DNA of 7,637 bases from a virus (IMGVR_UViG_2877291059_000003); one strand, 5' to 3'. Counted from the first letter of the stretch, positions 1 through 7,637 are shown. Numbers and translations: made by a program. Notes: generated by a model not told the origin, from the letters alone.

Positions 1-170
1 ATGGCCAGCGTTAACATTCATTGTCCTCGTTGTCAGTCTGCACAGGTCTACCGCCATGGTCAGAACCCTAAAGGCCATGACAGATTTCGCTGCCGTGACT
101 GCCACCGCGTTTTTCAGCTCACTGTTTTTCAGCTCACTTACACTTATGAGGCCCGTAAGCCGGGCATTAA
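1..170 (+). mobile_element. insA: IS1-family (iso-IS1-like) element remnant: 5' part of insA only, truncated internally at about nt 170
   Basis: Translation MASVNIHCPRCQSAQVYRHGQNPKGHDRFRCRDCHRVFQL...TYTYEARKPGI aligns with the N-terminal zinc-finger region of canonical IS1 InsA ([51 protein letters not shown]) at roughly 45% identity. After about nt 170 the frame (NVTFLVNDL...) has no InsA similarity. The IS left end would lie upstream of the window. Confidence 0.8.
108..137. repeat. Perfect 15-bp tandem duplication (gtttttcagctcact x2) inside the insA fragment
   Basis: Direct reading: 108-122 and 123-137 are identical. The duplication is in frame and repeats the peptide VFQLT in the InsA reading frame. 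Confidence 0.95.
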
Positions 171-253
171 CGTGACTTTTTTGGTTAACGACCTGAGCGC
201 ATCCAGAATGGCCTTAGCGTTATCCACCCTCGTTGTTACACCGCTTTTGAAAC

Positions 254-661
254 TCATAGCTGGCGACCGCCTGCACCGAACATCGTGATCAACTGATAAA
301 ATTCAGCGCCATATCGGGTGTTATTCCAGAAACCTTCGTCAGGATTCAGCGTCGCGCTGGTGTCATAGCTGACGCTTACCTTGTCAACGGACTTTGAGGA
401 CTGAACACCATTGGTTGAACCGCCCGGACCACCAGCCAGCATCGCTCTGCTGTCTGCCGCCCAGAGCGTCATGTAGTGCGCAACGAACAATCCGGCAAAG
501 TACGGAAACAACTTTTTGCCGGTGACGTTTTCGGTCAGCAGTTCATCGGCCAGATTCAGACGAAACTGGATTTGCGCTTCGGGATATTTGGCAGGGTCAG
601 CAAACTGCGGGAAGTCGCGGCGAAAATCACTTACCGCTGGCAGACTTTGATTCTTTGGCAT
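254..661 (-). CDS. Phage head protein, DUF4054-like (135 aa)
   Basis: ORF with GAGG Shine-Dalgarno about 7 nt upstream of ATG at 661. N-terminal pattern [20 protein letters not shown] ... AHYMTLWA and C-terminal YGAEFYQL resemble the small DUF4054 proteins usually encoded just downstream of DUF2184 capsid genes. Family assignment is from memory. Confidence 0.7.
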
Positions 662-848
662 TTTTTACCTCGTTACGCGCGTCTGTGGCTTTGCCAACGG
701 ATACTTCCGCGTGCGCACGAGTGAACCAGTACGTGGCAACGTCTTCCTCCACAACATGACGGCCTTTAACAAACTCGCGCCGAGAACCGTCGGGAAGCGT
801 GAGCACAAACGGGGTATGTACGTGTATTACTGCATCATTTTTTGCCAT
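627..848 (-). CDS. Small hypothetical phage protein (73 aa)
   Basis: ORF with AAGGA Shine-Dalgarno about 8 nt upstream of ATG at 848. Sits between capsid and DUF4054 genes; its 3' end overlaps the DUF4054 start by 35 nt. No recognisable family. Confidence 0.45.
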
Positions 849-862
849 CGGGTCATCCTTAA

Positions 863-881
863 TGGCCCCGCCAGGGGGCCA
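863..881 (-). promoter_or_regulatory. GC-rich stem-loop (7-bp stem tggcccc/ggggcca, 5-nt loop) in the gap downstream of the capsid gene
   Basis: Perfect inverted repeat at 863-869 and 875-881, between the capsid stop (890-892) and the RBS of the next ORF. No U-tract follows on the transcribed strand, so it is not a canonical intrinsic terminator; could be an mRNA stabiliser or attenuator. Confidence 0.4.
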
Positions 882-889
882 TGTGGCTG

Positions 890-1831
890 TTAAATGCCAT
901 CAACGTACGAAATGGTTTCTTTGTACACTGGCTCGACTGCACCCAGCTTGCCGTAGTAAGTGACGATCTGATACAGACCGCGATACTGCACCGGCACGCT
1001 CTGAAGCGGAACCAGCGGGTAGCGGACGTATTTTTTATCGTTGGTGTACGCAACCATGCGATCCTTATTCCCCACACCACGGCCTTTCAGCCATTTAACC
1101 GCGCGGATATTCAGCGGAACACCGTTCTGGTGATAGCTGATGGTGTTGGTCTGAAGGTACGTCAACAGGGACTGGTTACCTGCAGATGAAACGATGATGC
1201 TGGACAACAGAGCAAACTGCTCAGGCAGGATCAGCAAATCACGCGGAACCACAGAGTAACCAGAAGCGGCCCACGCATCAGACAGCACCTGGTTAATGCT
1301 TGCGCGGATTTCGTCCGGTGTTGAGGTTGCCCACGTTTTGGCAGCGTTGTTGACAGGCACGCCGTCCAGGGTAACAAGGCCTTTCAGGTTTAATGCGGAA
1401 TCGCCAACATATACCTGTTCATCGTTATCCATCTGCCATTTCAGTTGCATACCGTCATACTTCTGCGTATCAATCGGGCGGCCGACCTGCTGAGCAGCCT
1501 GCAATTCTATGACCGTCCAGCCAAGTTCCATCCCCCACAGGTTCAGCGGGTTACCGGATTTGCCGATATCCACGTTCACGCCAGCAATAGCGGTTGAGTC
1601 TTTGCCTACCCAGTTTTTTCCATTCGGATTTGCGCCAGTACCCGCAGCGGCGAAGCTGGTATTCGTCCAGCTGGAAATGTCATCTGCGATGGAGACGTCT
1701 TCACGCAGTTGAATATCGCGGCTCCAGGTGTACCCCACCAGTGGCAGGTTCAGCGTCTGGTCGAGTCGCTCCAGCTCCCCGATGAGAAAGGCACCAGAGC
1801 TGTCAACGGTTGCCTGATCAAAAGTAATCAT
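890..1831 (-). CDS. Phage major capsid protein, DUF2184-like (313 aa from ATG at 1831)
   Basis: Large ORF in the capsid position of the head module (after scaffold, before DUF4054). ATG at 1831-1829 has an AAGGA Shine-Dalgarno about 8 nt upstream and does not overlap the upstream gene; the track's longer ORF begins at a TTG at 1855. Family assignment is from memory. Confidence 0.8.
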   Translation of the reverse strand: MITFDQATVDSSGAFLIGELERLDQTLNLPLVGYTWSRDIQLREDVSIADDISSWTNTSFAAAGTGANPNGKNWVGKDSTAIAGVNVDIGKSGNPLNLWGMELGWTVIELQAAQQVGRPIDTQKYDGMQLKWQMDNDEQVYVGDSALNLKGLVTLDGVPVNNAAKTWATSTPDEIRASINQVLSDAWAASGYSVVPRDLLILPEQFALLSSIIVSSAGNQSLLTYLQTNTISYHQNGVPLNIRAVKWLKGRGVGNKDRMVAYTNDKKYVRYPLVPLQSVPVQYRGLYQIVTYYGKLGAVEPVYKETISYVDGI

Positions 1832-1842
1832 TCGTCTGTTCC

Positions 1843-2349
1843 TTAAATCTTCCAAGAAATTTCTGCATTGCCGTCAGCATCACCGGCACCTGTGAATTCA
1901 GCGTTGGTCAGCACCACGTTTTTGCCACTGACTGACGTGGACATGAATCCACCCAGCGGCACTTTGATGGATTCATCAGTGGGGACGACAACGTATACCG
2001 GATCGCCTTTTTTGATAGTGCTGGCATCAAAATCAGAACCGAGAGTAACGGTCACGTAGCCACGCTTCATGGCGTCGCCCGGGAAGTTCTTGCCTGTTCC
2101 CACCTAGCGAACCATGTCCGGCTGCGACGTGGTCGGATAAGGGCGCACGTAGATCCCCTTCACCTTGTCTGCGGTATCACCATCTGCCAGCGGCACGAAA
2201 AAACCGTCATCATCGTATTTACCAGCCAGGCCATAGGCAGCGAAGGCGTTATCGGATTTAAGGACCACCGGTTCGACGGTTAAGTCCTGCGGGCGAGAGA
2301 CAGCCCCGGCAATGCCAACAGGCATCCGGTACAGAAATACATTATTCAT
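1843..2349 (-). pseudogene. Phage structural protein (~168 aa if read through) interrupted by an in-frame TAG at 2104-2106
   Basis: ORFs 2104-2349 (81 aa, AAGGG RBS before ATG 2349) and 1843-2103 (86 aa) are in the same frame, separated only by one amber codon (cta on plus strand at 2104-2106). The downstream part starts at GTG with no Shine-Dalgarno. Confidence 0.5.
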
Positions 2350-2352
2350 TTT

Positions 2353-3567
2353 TTACCCTTTACGGTTTGCCCAGAATTCAGCGTTTTGTTTGTTCAGGGA
2401 AGCGATACTGGTCATGCCCATGTTTAGGCGCTGTGCATCGCCGGTGGTGGCGCGGGTGTTTCGCCCTTTGGCAACCTCAGACACGGCATTAAACGCCATG
2501 TCGACCGATTGTTTCGGTAATTTGCGGATATCCGCATCACCGACTATCTGGCGAACCAGCGTTTTGTCAGCAGAAGCCAGAACCTCGCGTTTGAACGCGG
2601 TCGGTTTCATCTTACGGCTCAGATCGATACCCGGAACGATAACTTCGGCACGCCAGGCTGAGTCACCAGTAATCGTGGTTTCCTCTTCATTGTCCTCGCC
2701 GTCACCGGTCGGATTATCGTCAGGCTTATTATCGTTATCGCCCGTGGCATTTCTTTCCAGCTTAGTCAGCAGGGCTTTCAGTAATGTTTTGAGGTCATCA
2801 TCACTGTCGCCGGTTGGATCTCCGCCCATCTCTGGTGCTTTGTCCGGTAGTGGTTGCTGCGGGGACAGGTTGATGTTGAGATTAACGCCCTGCGGCAAAT
2901 CCCCCTCATCTCCTGTAACCGATGCGGGAGCCGACTCCACCAGTTCGTTCATGGTGTCGGCATCTCCTGTCTTGATGGCCGCACGCATGCGGTTCCACCA
3001 GTTTTTCTTTTGATTTGCCATTGTGTCTCTGTCTCCAATTGCACAACGATTTCCGGCTCTGCCTTTAGGGACAAGAGCCACATGGTTTCCGGTAATATCG
3101 ACCTGCTCGGCTTTACCTGGCTCGGTCTGCTCGTACTCCGCGTCATAGCCGCACGACACTTCGCGCAGGCCATCTTCGATAAGCTGAATGGCGCTTTCGT
3201 CTTTGACGATAAGGTCAGCCAGCATCAAATCAGACTGCTCACCCGTCCCGCGCCGGACATTCTGGAGGTGCCCGACAGCAAGCTCTTTCCAGTTCTCGGG
3301 ATTTACCAGCCGCACATTCCCGTTTTCATCTTCAGGATGCTGATGCTCATCCCTTCGAATGAGGCAAGCGTGGCCGGATGGAATACCTGCTCAGGAGAAC
3401 GCGTGACGACTATTTCACCAAACTTATCGGGTTTCAGTTTTGGCAGGTCATCAGCACCATAGCGCTGCTTACCTGTTCGTCCTATCGGCACGTCTTTGCA
3501 CAGCAACGAGCCGTCAGCCAGGCGGTATCGGGTTTCCCCGAGCCTGGTCTCAAAAAAAGTATTTCAT
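2353..3567 (-). pseudogene. Phage scaffold/prohead protein, DUF2213-like, disrupted by two single-nucleotide frameshifts
   Basis: ATG at 3567-3565 follows the upstream stop (3571-3573) by 3 nt and reads MKYFF then TGA inside an A7 run (3552-3558). The next frame continues [31 protein letters not shown]...ATLASFEG with no start codon of its own. At the C3 run (3351-3353) coding switches back to the original frame ([28 protein letters not shown]..., 320-aa ORF). One fewer A at 3552-3558 and one extra C at 3351-3353 would give a single ~404-aa ORF. Confidence 0.6.
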
Positions 3568-3570
3568 GGG

Positions 3571-4353
3571 TTATGCTGCCCTTTTCATTGCGAATGGAAC
3601 GCGAACAAACACGATCTCTTTATAGCAGCGGCAGTTTGGCAGCTCGCCCGCGTGGCCGGTCATGCCGTCCAAAGTTGGAGGTGAATCCCAGCGGACGAAT
3701 TTACCTTTCATGTGATCGTGGGAATCTCGGACATCGCCATCATCGGCTGTACGCCAAATATAACCATCCGAGCCAATAGCTATCGCTCGGGCCATATCCA
3801 GCGCGCCCGTTGCTCTTCCCAGTTCCGTTCGGGCAATCAGATCGGCCCTAGACTTAGCAACATCGCCGGTAGATGCAATCTCTTTAGCAAACTGCTCCGC
3901 CCGACCACCGGTGACAACAGCCTCTATCGCTTTGTTCTGGATGTCGTACACCCTGTCTGCGGCCTCGAGAGGCAGAGATTTGATGTACTTGACCTGTTCG
4001 GCGATGATGGATTGCATCACCTGGCCCACAGGAGCGCTTTCCACAAGATTGCGGAGCTCGCGACTGATGTTCTTGCTGTGTTGCCGCCAAACTTTCTCGT
4101 TCTGCCGGGTTAGGTCCGCAGTAAAGTTTTCCGCGACCTTTGTCGCCCAGGGGGTGATGATTTCACTGTAACGCTCCAGCGCCGCAATAATTTCCGTGAT
4201 ACTGTCATTTGAACCATCGTAGCGACCATTTACGATGTCTCCAACCGCCCTCGCTATCCTGCGTAGGCTGGTTCGATACCGGATTTCCGCCTGACAGCTC
4301 CTGCGGTTCGTCATCAGGTTCGCCGATGCCGGGCGGCGCTTCATCTTCGGCAT
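3571..4353 (-). CDS. Phage head morphogenesis protein (Mu F-like / SPP1 gp7 family), 260 aa
   Basis: ORF with GAGGA Shine-Dalgarno about 8 nt upstream of ATG at 4353. C-terminal region YIWRTADDGDVRDSHDHMKGKFVRWDSPP...HAGELPNCRCY matches the conserved pattern of Mu F-like minor head proteins, and the gene sits directly after the portal. Start is uncertain (alternative ATG at 4314) because the 5' end overlaps the portal ORF. Confidence 0.75.
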   Translation of the reverse strand: MPKMKRRPASANLMTNRRSCQAEIRYRTSLRRIARAVGDIVNGRYDGSNDSITEIIAALERYSEIITPWATKVAENFTADLTRQNEKVWRQHSKNISRELRNLVESAPVGQVMQSIIAEQVKYIKSLPLEAADRVYDIQNKAIEAVVTGGRAEQFAKEIASTGDVAKSRADLIARTELGRATGALDMARAIAIGSDGYIWRTADDGDVRDSHDHMKGKFVRWDSPPTLDGMTGHAGELPNCRCYKEIVFVRVPFAMKRAA

Positions 4354-5364
4354 TCTCGATGTCCTCGTCGGTAATGGATGCCCCGATGCCGGTTACGTCA
4401 GAATTTTCTCGCAAATCAGTCATAGCGGCTTTCAGTGTCATCAGACCATCACCCAGCGCCGTACTGATTGCGTTGGTGGTGTTTAACGCCACCGTTGAGC
4501 GATCGACATCAGACATTTGCCAGAGCGGGTTAAACTCAAACGTGAAATCGTCCGGCAGCGGCTTGCCAAGTTCCGAACGATGCATGATGTCCAGTATCCG
4601 CCGCACCGGAAGACGTAAACGCCTCTCCTGCAACGAACTGATGCGATCGTAATAGTTGGCAAGGTCTGCATCACCGGTAGAAAATCCTTTCGGGGACTGT
4701 CCGAACAACCGCACCAGTAGGATACCAACAGCGCCACTAATCTGTTCTGCAAACTGCGAAAGGATGTCATCCAGACCACTGAAGCTGTACTGATGGGTTT
4801 CAAACTTATCCCGCGAGTCCATGAGCGTCATGCCTTCATTACTCTGGAACTGTCGAATCAGGTCGATATTCTTCAGCAACGCTTCATACGCAGGACCACC
4901 AAGTGCGATAAGCTCGCGTAGCTTCTCCACGCTGTAGGTACGCAAATGCGCCTTGTAGACCAGCTGCGCCGCGCCGACAGTAGCGCTGTCGAACGCGGTA
5001 AGACGATCCCAGATACGCTCTACAACCGACATTCCCCATTCGTTCTCGGTCATCTTCTGCTGAAATGGCAACGTGACGCCATCAAAGCGAATCAGGCGAC
5101 TGTGATGAATGCGCCTGGCAGGAATTCCCGTTGCTGTGGTCACCACATCGTAAAACTCAGGTTTACCCAGGTCCGGCCCCATATCTTTAATGCGGCGGGT
5201 CAGTGCCGGGTCGACCATCCAGCGGTCGAGCGGGAGAATCCCCTTAAACTTGCCCTTACCGATGGTTTCGGGTCGCAGCGGGGTCATTGGTGCCTGCCCC
5301 TCAATCATGATGAAACCCACCGCGCCGCCGTAGAGGCGCGACCATTTCAGCACGTCATTCAGCG
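4205..5364 (-). pseudogene. Phage portal protein (DUF1073-like), 5'-truncated by the IS1 end at 5365
   Basis: Reading frame is open from the IS1 terminus down to the stop at 4205-4207 (about 386 codons) with no upstream start region. Position immediately upstream of the F-like gene and the acidic C-terminal tail (EDEAPPGIGEPDDEPQE) fit a portal. Roughly 100 N-terminal residues expected for this family are missing. Confidence 0.6.
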
Positions 5365-5545
5365 GGTAATGACTCTAACTTATTGATAGTGTTTTATGTT
5401 CAGATAATGCCCGATGACTTTGTCATGCAGCTCCACCGATTTGAGAACGACAGCGACTTCCGTCCCAGCCGTGCCAGGTGCTGCCTCAGACTTCAGGTTA
5501 TGCCGCTCAATTCGCTGCGTATATCGCTTGCTGATTACGTGCAGC
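5365..5545 (-). mobile_element. IS1 fragment: terminal inverted repeat (IRR) plus about 180 bp of the insB 3' region; insA-containing orientation is minus
   Basis: ggtaatgactctaacttattgatagtgttttatgttcagataatgcccgatgactttgtcatgcagctccaccgatttgagaacgacagcg... matches the IS1 right end read inward. Match ends at gtgcagc (5545). Confidence 0.85.
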
Positions 5546-5611
5546 ATTTAGCGGGTAATGACTCTAACTTATTGATAGTGTTTTATGTTCAGATAATGCC
5601 CGATGACTTTG

Positions 5612-5830
5612 GTGACAGCAGGCTCATAAGACGCCCCAGCGTCGCCATAGTGCGTTCACCGAATACGTGCGCAACAACCGTCTTCCGGAGCCTGTCATAC
5701 GCGTAAAACAGCCAGCGCTGGCGCGATTAGCCCCGACGTACTCCCACTGTTCGTCCATTTCCGCGCAGAACGATGACGTCACTGCCCGGCTGTATGCGCG
5801 AGGTTACCGACTGCGGCCTGAGTTTTTTAA
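5612..5830 (-). pseudogene. insB: IS1 insB remnant lacking its 3' third because of the internal deletion
   Basis: Region downstream of insA on the minus strand matches the IS1 insB 5' portion and the frameshift window; the C-terminal coding part is removed by the deletion at 5611/5612. Confidence 0.6.
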
Positions 5831-6031
5831 GTGACGTAAAATCGTGTTGAGGCTAACGCCCATAATGCGTGCAGTTGCCCGGCATCCAACGCCATTCATG
5901 GCCATATCAATGATTTTCTGGTGCGTACCGGGTTGAGAAGCGGTGTAAGTGAACTGCAGTTGCCATGTTTTACGGCAGTGAGAGCAGAGATAGCGCTGAT
6001 GTCCGGCAGTGCTTTTGCCGTTACGCACCAC
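5804..6031 (-). pseudogene. insA: IS1 insA lacking the first ~16 codons (no ATG, no promoter, first CxxC of the zinc finger missing)
   Basis: Translation [74 protein letters not shown] is near-identical to canonical InsA residues 17-91. The upstream IS1 sequence is replaced by another IRR copy at 6050. Confidence 0.75.
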
Positions 6032-6049
6032 CCCGTCAGTAGCTGAACA

Positions 6050-6138
6050 GGTAATGACTCTAACTTATTGTATAGTGTTTTATTGTTCTAGATAATGCCC
6101 GACTGACTTTGTCATGCAGCTCCACCGATTTGAGAACG
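6050..6138 (-). repeat. Third direct copy of the IS1 IRR-proximal end (89 bp), diverged from copies 1 and 2 by four 1-nt insertions
   Basis: ggtaatgactctaacttattgTatagtgttttatTgttcTagataatgcccgaCtgactttgtcatgcagctccaccgatttgagaacg compared with the identical copies at 5365 and 5554. It joins the IS1 interior through a 2-bp microhomology (gg at 6050-6051) and ends 17 bp before the sulfatase ATG. Confidence 0.8.
6068..6096 (+). promoter_or_regulatory. Candidate sigma70 promoter inside the third IS1 end copy: -35 ttgtat (6068-6073), 17-bp spacer, -10 gataat (6091-6096)
   Basis: Motif seen directly. In copies 1 and 2 the equivalent elements (ttgata ... gataat) are only 14 bp apart; three of the insertions in copy 3 lie in this spacer. 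Oriented toward the sulfatase gene (ATG 6156). No expression evidence. Confidence 0.3.
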
Positions 6139-6155
6139 GATCAAGGTAGGGTGTA

Positions 6156-7637
6156 ATGAGAGCGATTATTCTGCTGTTCGATAGTCTGAATAAACGTTAT
6201 CTGCCTCCTTATGGCGATGCGTTAACCAAAGCGCCTAATTTCCAACGTCTGGCGGCTCATGCCGCCACCTTTGAAAACAGTTACGTTGGCAGTATGCCGT
6301 GTATGCCTGCCCGGCGGGAGTTGCATACCGGGCGATGTAACTTCCTGCATCGGGAGTGGGGGCCGTTAGAACCGTTTGACGATTCCATGCCGGAGCTGCT
6401 TAAAAAGGCGGGGATCTATACCCACCTGATAAGCGATCATTTGCATTACTGGGAAGATGGCGGCGGGAATTATCATAATCGCTACAGTTCGTGGGAGATT
6501 GTGCGCGGACAGGAAGGCGATCACTGGCATGCAAGCGTTGCGCAACCGCCTATTCCCGAGGTGCTACGGGGGCCGCAAAAGCAGACCGGTGGCGGTGTTT
6601 CTGGTCTGTGGCGCCATGACTGGGCAAACCGGGAATATATTCAGCAGGAAGCGGATTTTCCACAAACTAAAGTGTTTGATGCAGGCAGTGCCTTTATCCA
6701 CAAAAATCACGCGGAAGATAACTGGTTATTGCAGGTCGAAACGTTTGATCCGCACGAGCCGTTTCACACAACGGAAGAGTATCTTTCCTTGTATGAAGAT
6801 AACTGGGATGGACCGCATTATGACTGGCTGCGTGGCCGGGTGCAGGAAAGCGACGAGGCCGTGGAGCACATCCGTTGCCGGTATCGTTCGCTGGTGTCGA
6901 TGTGCGATCGCAACCTGGGGCGCATTCTCGACCTGATGGATGAGCACGATCTGTGGCGAGATACCATGCTGATTGTCGGCACTGACCACGGCTTTTTACT
7001 CGGTGAGCATGGCTGGTGGGCGAAAAACCAGATGCCTTATTACAACGAAGTTGCCAATAATCCGTTGTTTATCTGGGACCCGCGCAGTGGTGTAAAAGGA
7101 GAGCGGCGACAGGCACTGGTACAAATGATCGACTGGGCGCCAACGTTGTATGACTTTTTTCAACAGCCAGTGCCGCCCGATGTGCAGGGGCAACCGCTGG
7201 CGAAAACGGTCAGTCACGATGAACCAGTACGCAGCTCGGCGATGTTTGGTGTTTTCAGTGGTCATGCTAACGTAACTGATGGGCGTTATGTGTATATGCG
7301 TGCAGCGCTGCCGGGGCGTGAGGATGATATTGCCAACTACACGTTGATGTCCTGCAAAATGAACAGCCGCTATCCGGTGGATGAGATGCGGGCTTTATCG
7401 CTGGCCCCACCGTTTCGTTTTACCAAAGGGTTACAGGTATTACGCATCCCGGCACAGGAAAAATATAAGGGGTTGAATCAGTTTGGTCATTTGCTGTTTG
7501 ATCTGCAAAACGATCCGCAGCAGCTACATCCGATTCATGATGATGTGATCGAGTCCCGGATGATCGCGTTGCTGATTCAGTTGATGAAAGATAATGATGC
7601 GCCGCCAGAGCAGTTTCAGCGCCTGGGATTAGCGTAG
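6156..7637 (+). CDS. Sulfatase-family protein (alkaline phosphatase superfamily, Cys-type), 493 aa, no N-terminal signal peptide
   Basis: Complete ORF with purine-rich RBS (aaggtaggg) upstream of ATG and TAG stop at the window end. Contains the formylglycine sulfatase signature C-M-P-A-R-R-E-L-H-T-G (C49-G59, nt 6300-6332) and a GTDHG motif further downstream. N-terminus MRAIILLFDSLNKRY is not hydrophobic enough for a signal peptide. Confidence 0.85.
   Translation: MRAIILLFDSLNKRYLPPYGDALTKAPNFQRLAAHAATFENSYVGSMPCMPARRELHTGRCNFLHREWGPLEPFDDSMPELLKKAGIYTHLISDHLHYWEDGGGNYHNRYSSWEIVRGQEGDHWHASVAQPPIPEVLRGPQKQTGGGVSGLWRHDWANREYIQQEADFPQTKVFDAGSAFIHKNHAEDNWLLQVETFDPHEPFHTTEEYLSLYEDNWDGPHYDWLRGRVQESDEAVEHIRCRYRSLVSMCDRNLGRILDLMDEHDLWRDTMLIVGTDHGFLLGEHGWWAKNQMPYYNEVANNPLFIWDPRSGVKGERRQALVQMIDWAPTLYDFFQQPVPPDVQGQPLAKTVSHDEPVRSSAMFGVFSGHANVTDGRYVYMRAALPGREDDIANYTLMSCKMNSRYPVDEMRALSLAPPFRFTKGLQVLRIPAQEKYKGLNQFGHLLFDLQNDPQQLHPIHDDVIESRMIALLIQLMKDNDAPPEQFQRLGLA

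Follow-up and report, generated by a model that had tools for sequence, protein, structure and literature searches.

The window analyzed here, a stretch of 7,637 nucleotides, originates from strain Sd1617 of Shigella dysenteriae type 1 (Sd1; CP006736.1, nt 1878784 to 1886420, genome label L010), which has been described as MLST-untypeable and as the sole strain with a truncated IS600 orfA. Phage DNA occupies positions 176 to 5364 of the window (5,189 nt), and alignment revealed it to be collinear with intact prophages, with no rearrangement. Profile searches with Pfam, NCBIfam, and PHROGs established the gene order as portal, Mu-F-like head morphogenesis, DUF2213 head maturation protease, Gp24 cement, major capsid, STY1053, and DUF4054 (Table 1). 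The 73-amino-acid (aa) open reading frame (ORF) matched no Pfam family and takes the name STY1053 from NCBIfam, with a further match in PHROGs, while DUF4054, for which there is no NCBIfam family, is covered by Pfam and was likewise matched in PHROGs. The cut gene at the far edge of the phage DNA has a full-length homologue in L002 that matches phrog_222 (tail completion or Neck1), and the major capsid gene is equal in length to that of L001. Rfam and tRNA scans detected no RNA genes in the window. An earlier note on this DNA had placed the remnant at 171 to 5364 and described it as running from portal to DUF4054; its gene content stands, with the 27 neck codons added, but the phage DNA begins at 176.

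Table 1. Features of the 7,637-nt window (positions counted from its first nucleotide)
Feature	Position	Strand	Basis or remark
IS1N (iso-IS1) insA 5' fragment	1..170	+	Zn-ribbon IS1 family match
Filler CGTGA, 5 nt	171..175	.	Between insA fragment and phage DNA; none in other Sd1 genomes
Tail-completion/Neck1 gene, first 27 codons, cut by IS1N	176..257	-	L001 alignment begins at 176
DUF4054 (E217 gp27-like) virion structural gene, intact, 135 aa	254..661	-	PF13262, E=1e-27; phrog_302
STY1053-family small phage gene, intact, 73 aa	627..848	-	NF047914, E=1.3e-17
Major capsid gene (DUF2184/PF09950), intact, 313 aa	890..1831	-	PF09950, E=9e-87; phrog_264
Gp24-type cement (decoration) gene, amber-inactivated	1843..2349	-	Profile match and alignment
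DUF2213 head maturation protease gene, frameshifted	2353..3567	-	Profile matches and alignment
Mu-F-like head morphogenesis (minor capsid) gene, intact, 247 aa	3571..4314	-	PF04233, TIGR01641; phrog_324
Portal gene (DUF1073/PF06381), codons 103-488 only	4205..5364	-	PF06381 match and alignment
IS1-derived mosaic, 778 nt	5365..6142	-	Comparison with Sd197 and other genomes
IS1 mosaic: right-end 181 nt	5365-5545		
IS1 mosaic: right end, copy 2, includes 8-9 nt of unique portal flank	5546-5611		
IS1 mosaic: internal IS1 (insB' 5' part and insA)	5612-6049		
IS1 mosaic: right end, copy 3, four 1-nt insertions	6050-6138		
IS1 mosaic: filler	6139-6142		
Chromosomal DNA displaced from rlmC-artJ island	6143..7637	+	99.5-99.6% identity to E. 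coli O55:H7 locus
Sulfatase gene, intact, 493 aa	6156-7637	+	PF00884

Three of the eight head-module genes, full and truncated genes counted together, are inactivated. The portal gene has lost the first 102 of its 488 codons, its 5' 307 nt being gone at the IS1 junction, and this junction is identical to the nucleotide in all 10 Sd1 loci. A CAG-to-TAG change at codon 82 of the cement gene (window 2104 to 2106) accompanies a split of the ORF into products of 81 aa and 75/86 aa in 9 of the 10 Sd1 loci; the ORF boundaries of the split differ from these in L014, a draft contig. The DUF2213 gene carries a 7-bp deletion after position 3340 that is common to Sd197 and others but not found in L008, as well as an extra T at 3552 that is specific to the CP006736.1 assembly and probably an assembly artifact. 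The portal truncation at the IS1 junction at 5365, the amber stop in one structural gene, and a frameshift had all been called in the earlier note and were borne out here, except that the frameshifted gene, which it took for a scaffold, is that of the head maturation protease. Relative to L001, the region from capsid to portal contains ~12 non-synonymous or nonsense changes and 2 synonymous changes. The amber codon, the polymorphic 7-bp deletion, and the high non-synonymous share are suggestive of a remnant decaying under relaxed selection.

No terminase, tail, lysis, immunity, replication, or integrase genes were found in the window or within 10 kb on each side of the locus in the 10 Sd1 genomes that we compared. 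Apart from IS copies, these flanks hold only yeiG-cirA-lysP at one end and artJ'-IS-folE at the other, such that the absence of terminase and tail genes claimed for the window also holds outside it, a check that had been set in advance. The remnant is syntenic with functional phage, is missing essential modules, and carries inactivating mutations in the genes that remain, as is typical of a cryptic prophage; alignment to intact prophages and inspection of the flanks confirmed the earlier description of a cryptic head-module remnant lying between two different IS1-family elements. Its gene content supports the view that it would be unable to form phage, and it would be expected to be non-inducible and to yield no particles. 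For S. dysenteriae HNCMB 20080, PHASTER "Region 9" already records this stretch of phage DNA under the label "intact"; that label is wrong, and the region is an ordinary, decaying piece of prophage. When portal codons 1 to 102 were used in a protein search, 31 candidates were obtained, 22 of them short or partial portals; among these, we saw no fusion to IS1 and no obvious S. dysenteriae sequence. The best of these candidates for the portal 5' end (P0002) turned out to be a frameshifted portal within an otherwise complete E. coli prophage. In a published PHASTER table, 1 of 27 regions is SEN34-like. The portal-codon search and this table point weakly toward the missing phage parts being gone from the genome.

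In the synteny comparison that the earlier note had proposed, the closest intact relative was the prophage of E. coli FDAARGOS_944 (99.2% nucleotide identity). The remnant is ~96% identical to many E. coli prophages, 95.2% identical to the inducible phages vB_EcoM-606R2 and relatives, and 82% identical to SEN34. Judged from these alignments, the source phage appears to be a temperate myovirus with a Brunovirus/SEN34-type head and tail module, the closest match to which is a lambdoid hybrid prophage with ipaH from Shigella/EIEC-like strains.

Neither of the IS1-family sequences that adjoin the phage DNA is a complete element in the window. On the portal side, the IS1 right inverted repeat begins at 5365, where the earlier note had seen a canonical IS1, yet the sequence contains three direct copies of the right end, lacks a left inverted repeat, and has broken insA and insB. 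A complete, normal 768-bp IS1 occupies the same position in Sd197 and L006; in Sd197, it is flanked by CATTCAGCG on the portal side and ATCCGCATT on the sulfatase side, with no 8- to 9-bp target duplication. On the neck-gene side, the window holds only the 170-nt insA fragment, which is part of a scrambled IS1N that extends upstream of the window in CP006736.1. This fragment carries a 15-bp tandem duplication (109 to 123 and 124 to 138) seen only in L010, and the L010 IS1N region has four left-end copies with the unique flank "AAT." In Sd197, the element is a complete 767-bp IS1N (99.3% identity to annotated IS1N elements), and its terminal repeat abuts the identical phage nucleotide in nine of nine other Sd1 genomes. 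The internal join of insA to phage DNA at ~170 is confined to L010, and the claim that the prophage ends inside an iso-IS1 insA does not hold for the nine other Sd1 genomes, which have a complete IS1N.

Comparison among genomes and the published assembly method strongly support, but do not prove, the conclusion that the fragmented IS1 and IS1N structures of the window would be artifacts of the CP006736.1 assembly, since unique flanking nucleotides are repeated inside both elements and since the assembly was built from short-read contigs (454, Ion Torrent, and MiSeq) whose order was set by the reference Sd197. The scrambled elements could instead be real, Sd1617-specific products of abortive or nested insertions of IS1 ends combined with internal deletions. 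Another IS1 copy of CP006736.1 has a 90-nt block full of indels that matches the one here in sequence and IS1 coordinate, which counts among the signs of misassembly but is also what a transposing variant might show, and the authors of the Sd1617 genome, who noted unusually short IS1 copies, took these to reflect recombination or excision. However, the recurrence of unique flank nucleotides within the elements, the retention of length by the replacements (778 and ~785 nt, close to the real 768 and 767), the numerous homopolymer indels, and an assembly method that fits such errors all argue against real structures. The junctions are moreover normal in the nine other clonal genomes, including the draft L014, which we take to be an independent assembly of strain 1617, and we consider real scrambling very improbable. 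Given that the IS1 and IS1N copies checked in CP006736.1 are scrambled, IS junctions, IS counts, and "truncated IS" taken from this record are unsafe as biological evidence.

The remnant is fixed in the S. dysenteriae type 1 clone, where it lies in the folE-yeiG intergenic region; the reconstructed empty site occurs once in 5,426 of 5,426 E. coli genomes. In sister genomes, the block reads IS1N::IS1 - artJ'-sulfatase - IS1 - phage remnant - IS1N. Two IS1N copies in direct orientation enclose it, the 8-bp target duplication AATAAACG lies outside each of them, and every genome has the outer junctions CACATTGAATAAACG/IS1N and IS1N/AATAAACGGTATG. The two IS copies and outer duplication that define a composite transposon were seen in the sister genomes, and the window reaches only the inner edge of one IS1N. 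We found no attachment site or integrase at the folE-yeiG insertion, and the intact relatives of the phage are integrated at ybhA/pgl or ssrA. The native locus of the sulfatase gene is between rlmC and artJ, and the sulfatase segment beside the remnant has been lost repeatedly among Sd1 genomes through IS1-IS1 recombination.

The nine other genomes show the true structure, in which the portal gene is broken by a complete IS1 and the neck gene by a complete IS1N. Since the IS1 and the IS1N each lack a target duplication of their own, they are recombinants between copies that were once at different loci; for the IS1, whose flanks differ in Sd197, the two parents were separate insertions. Via this IS1, the phage piece is linked to the sulfatase-artJ' fragment that stems from the rlmC-artJ island. 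What else the prophage contained would have been lost elsewhere by IS-mediated recombination or deletion. An inversion between inverted IS1 copies may fit the portal-IS1-sulfatase orientation. An origin of this junction by plain deletion within a prophage integrated at the lambda attachment site was considered and rejected, the phage genes being inverted relative to the sulfatase gene in comparison with FDAARGOS_944. The block could then have been transposed as an IS1N composite transposon, or a resident IS1N could have taken up an IS1N-bearing circle or segment by recombination; the block may have arrived by composite transposition, by homologous insertion, or through successive inversions. 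The specific proposal that composite transposition on IS1N brought the block to the folE-yeiG spacer, rather than homologous recombination between IS copies building it up on site, is one that we advance tentatively and regard as rather doubtful. If true, it would mean that IS1-family elements carried a chromosomal sulfatase gene and phage structural genes to a new location as one unit, without phage integration.

The earlier note had attributed the remnant to IS-mediated deletion. DNA has indeed been lost, but deletion in place is insufficient, since the folE-yeiG site, the 8-bp duplication, and the displaced rlmC-artJ fragment require translocation as well as loss. Under an in-place model, a prophage integrated at this site would have been trimmed from both sides by IS1 adjacent deletions, with one endpoint inside the iso-IS1 insA. 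IS1 is known to promote adjacent deletions, and the model would account for IS1-family sequence at both edges and for the absence of the remaining prophage nearby. Its internal insA endpoint, however, is limited to a single short-read, reference-guided assembly, and the portal-side neighbor derives from the rlmC-artJ locus rather than from the folE side. The clean duplication outside two IS1N copies, the absence of an attachment site and integrase, and the location of the intact relatives at other sites also count against it. The target duplication and the displaced sulfatase gene largely refute this model, which we consider unlikely. It could also be argued that the four full-length ORFs (major capsid, Mu-F-like, DUF4054, and STY1053) are kept for use by the host or another mobile element, as every Sd1 genome examined has the block. 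However, with Sd1 being a recent clone, universal presence says little about selection, and the portal, protease, and cement genes are disrupted, the terminase is absent, capsid-to-portal changes are mostly non-synonymous or nonsense, and an additional frameshift is polymorphic among strains; we give this explanation almost no credence. Taken together, these results make it highly probable that the locus is a non-functional leftover of a prophage head that was shuffled by IS elements through both translocation and loss, and that the IS scrambling in the window is artifactual. Prophage remnants eroded by IS elements are characteristic of Shigella genomes, and this one carries little biological weight, but the locus provides a neat illustration of IS1/IS1N recombination first rearranging DNA and then, more than once, removing it in a young pathogenic clone.

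The portal-to-DUF4054 order of the remnant is that of SEN34-type Brunovirus and its E. coli and Shigella relatives (vB_EcoM-606R2 and the FDAARGOS_944 prophage, which carries ipaH). Relative to SEN34-type genomes of roughly 40 to 43 kb, it retains ~5.2 kb, or 12 to 13% of the genome, and it lacks their terminase, lysis, regulation, replication, integrase, neck, tail, and baseplate genes. In Tn9-type composite transposons, IS1 copies are present as direct repeats. The block is similar in that two direct copies of an IS1-family element bracket a cargo, with an 8-bp target duplication outside; in contrast with Tn9-type elements, its flanks are IS1N, and its cargo is junk, namely, a phage remnant, another IS1, and a sulfatase-artJ' fragment. 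Homologous recombination with one resident IS1N could also give such a structure, and movement as a unit is a candidate route only. Unlike IS-flanked defective Shigella prophages, such as the cryptic Stx1 prophage of S. dysenteriae type 1, the remnant is without known virulence cargo and lies outside any attachment site, in an IS1N-bounded block that also contains a displaced piece of chromosome. Like them, it is bounded by IS elements, eroded by them, and expected to be non-inducible, and it is conserved across the Sd1 clone.

The window corresponds to the chromosome of Shigella dysenteriae type 1 (Sd1) strain Sd1617 (CP006736.1, about 1,878,784-1,886,420), which is the same at junction-specific strings and across the entire IS1 region, and its first bases are the ATG of an insA gene and its last a sulfatase stop codon. 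When compared by Megablast with 5,426 complete E. coli genomes, window 176-5364 behaved as a single collinear block, matching a complete prophage of "E. coli" FDAARGOS_944 at 99.2% identity and many other E. coli prophages at about 96%. In the phage collection, identity to this block was 95.2% for phages vB_EcoM-606R2, 689R2, 611R5, and 683R1, 85% for Citrobacter phage Omnitron, 82% for Salmonella phage SEN34 (genus Brunovirus), and 79% for Hafnia phage yong1. Given this alignment, the gene families detected, and the defects revealed by base-by-base comparison with the intact relative (see the table), the core of the earlier note's claim, namely that a cryptic prophage head module lies between IS elements, is correct, with boundaries at 175/176 and 5364/5365.

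Features of the window. Phage genes were assigned with Pfam, NCBIfam, and PHROGs; defects are relative to the intact relative.
Feature	Window position	Strand	Family	State
IS1N side	1-175			insA joined internally to phage DNA
Phage block	176-5364			
Portal		minus	PF06381	lacks codons 1-102 of 488
Mu-F-like head morphogenesis protein		minus		
DUF2213		minus	PHROGs name, head maturation protease	7-bp deletion after 3340; additional T in T-run at 3552
Cement protein		minus	Gp24-type	codon 82 CAG to TAG
Major capsid protein		minus	PF09950	
Small protein		minus	STY1053 family	
DUF4054		minus	E217 gp27-like	
Tail-completion/Neck1		minus		first 27 codons only
IS1 region	5365-6142			insA and insB ORFs broken
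IS1 right-end repeats, direct	5365, 5554, 6050			three copies
Repeat of portal/IS1 junction	5545-5611			repeats 5356-5422 inside IS1
Sulfatase	6156-7637, within displaced chromosomal DNA 6143-7637			intact

The amber codon splits the cement gene alike in nine of the ten Sd1 loci compared, and the ORF boundaries differ in the draft contig (L014). Sd197, CP026777, and CP024466 carry the same 7-bp DUF2213 deletion as the window; CP026774 lacks it and has an intact 406-aa DUF2213 ORF. The additional T, which is unique to the Sd1617 record, is probably an assembly artefact. Against the intact relative, the capsid-to-portal genes show about 12 changes that are non-synonymous or nonsense and 2 that are synonymous, a ratio compatible with the absence of purifying selection. 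Of the 31 substitutions counted against the FDAARGOS_944 prophage, 10 fall together within 200 nt of the DUF4054 gene (336-534) and are mostly synonymous, which suggests a small recombination patch rather than decay in place. Relatives with near-identical head modules differ in their large terminase, which is a 467-aa PBSX-type protein in one (L001, 17502-18905) and an unnamed 540-aa type in another (L002, 25504-27126). A mosaic boundary therefore falls at the very beginning of the portal gene, and these two prophages do not reveal which terminase type the Sd1 ancestor had.

The IS sequences at the two edges differ from the earlier note's description. The internal insA join that the note placed at about position 170 (phage-TCACG-internal insA) exists only in the Sd1617 assembly, as does a 15-bp tandem duplication. 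Sd197 instead carries a complete 767-nt IS1N (99.3% identity to elements annotated as IS1N), whose terminal repeat GGTGATG adjoins the phage exactly at the nucleotide matching window 176, and this junction was found in all nine other Sd1 genomes. The IS1N region of Sd1617 contains four left-end copies, and the opening bases of the unique flank on the yeiG side come directly after each one. Nor is the IS1 at 5365 canonical, as had been supposed: neither a left inverted repeat nor an inverted repeat of any kind was found in window 5365-6142, whereas at the same position Sd197 and CP026777 have a normal IS1 of 768 bp that retains both inverted repeats. Just before the second right-end copy stands CATTTAGCG, which nearly duplicates the unique portal flank CATTCAGCG; the portal/IS1 junction is thus repeated inside the element. 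The third copy carries four single-base insertions and stands in place of the IS1 left end and of 21 nt of the original sequence that precedes the sulfatase gene. Both replaced stretches are about as long as the DNA they replace, and the same indel-ridden 90-nt block recurs 3 kb off, at the matching internal coordinate of another IS1 copy in the Sd1617 assembly. The window thus contains neither an intact IS1 nor an intact IS1N, whereas the sister genomes have both, intact except for a target duplication around each element.

Since unique flanks are repeated within the IS elements, the substitutions preserve length, homopolymer indels occur, and all other clonal genomes have the normal structure, we infer that the internal insA join and the irregular IS1 are assembly artefacts. 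The Sd1617 genome was built from 604 contigs (454) and 562 contigs (Ion Torrent and MiSeq) with Sd197 as the reference, and its authors reported that IS1 copies were shorter on average in Sd1617 (221 against 334). A later paper found that the record could not be typed by MLST and that no other record had a truncated IS600 orfA. Among the IS copies examined in CP006736.1, both of IS1 and one of two of IS1N (window 5365-6142 and 1-175; Sd1617 locus L010, 1000-2300 and 10487-11273) are scrambled alike: the ends are repeated, unique flanking bases turn up internally, and there are indels in homopolymers. Just outside the window, L010 differs from another Sd1 locus, L007, by 73 nt missing within the artJ' fragment (L010 about 2860-2935; alignment A2, columns 1856-1928) and in the long poly-C run that lies downstream of that fragment; both are likely further assembly or sequencing errors. 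The main useful outcome is a warning that the IS-related features of CP006736.1 are unreliable in general.

The ten Sd1 loci share the order folE-IS1N-artJ'-sulfatase-IS1-portal'...DUF4054-neck'-IS1N-yeiG-cirA-lysP, with artJ'-sulfatase missing in four. Both IS1N copies point the same way, and an IS1 flanked by an 8-bp duplication of its own, CGGTCAGA, interrupts the one on the folE side. The outer flanks of the pair (...TTGAATAAACG before the first IS1N and AATAAACGGTATG... after the second) and the reconstructed empty site ...TTGAATAAACGGTATG..., which occurs exactly once, upstream of yeiG, in each of 5,426/5,426 E. coli genomes, indicate that the whole IS1N-bounded block is bracketed by an 8-bp target duplication. 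No matching flanks were found around any single internal IS, so each is a recombinant between insertions at different loci. Given this bracketing, the integration of intact relatives at ssrA or at ybhA/pgl, and the usual position of the sulfatase gene between rlmC/PTS-IIB and artJ, the remnant is not at a phage attachment site and was brought to folE-yeiG with a displaced chromosomal fragment.

With two direct IS1N copies inside an outer 8-bp duplication, the block has the structure of a composite transposon. It may have arrived by transposing as an IS1N composite, or an IS1N-bounded segment may have recombined homologously into an IS1N already resident there. Compared with the FDAARGOS_944 arrangement, the phage genes have the opposite orientation relative to the sulfatase gene; hypothetically, two inverted IS1 copies, one in the portal gene and one at the end of PTS-IIB, mediated an inversion, which would give exactly the portal-IS1-sulfatase junction. 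The intact sulfatase gene has been cut off from the PTS IIC/IIB genes that adjoin it in its original rlmC-artJ island (compare L004, 6317-9495), so its expression context has changed, and artJ is truncated by IS1N. The 3.4-kb artJ'-sulfatase segment is absent from L008, L009, L011, and L013, in contrast to L005-L007, L010, and L012; the shortened loci read folE-IS1N 5' part-IS1-portal, the expected product of recombination between two direct IS1 copies. Genomes with this loss include both carriers and non-carriers of the 7-bp DUF2213 deletion, so the segment was lost at least twice.

Among the 31 candidates from a protein search using portal codons 1-102, there was no IS1-fused amino-terminal portal fragment. 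The locus is already catalogued in the literature and is no surprise for specialists: in the PHASTER table for HNCMB 20080 (CP061527, L005), Region 9 (1,663,417-1,681,800) spans it and, alone among 27 regions, is described as SEN34-like, a hint that the remainder of the prophage may be gone. The published output labels Region 9 an "intact" prophage; this label is spurious, and IS genes and neighbouring housekeeping genes probably inflated it.

The closest intact relative, the FDAARGOS_944 prophage (L001, L016; NZ_CP065613.1, 4286289-4329172), is a lambdoid hybrid at ybhA/pgl with the T3SS effector gene ipaH, and its host carries numerous IS1 copies and resembles Shigella or EIEC. Window 176-5364 has the properties of a cryptic prophage remnant and, judging from its gene content, is predicted to be non-inducible. 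IS-bounded defective prophage remnants have long been described in Shigella; this remnant works like them and is one of them.
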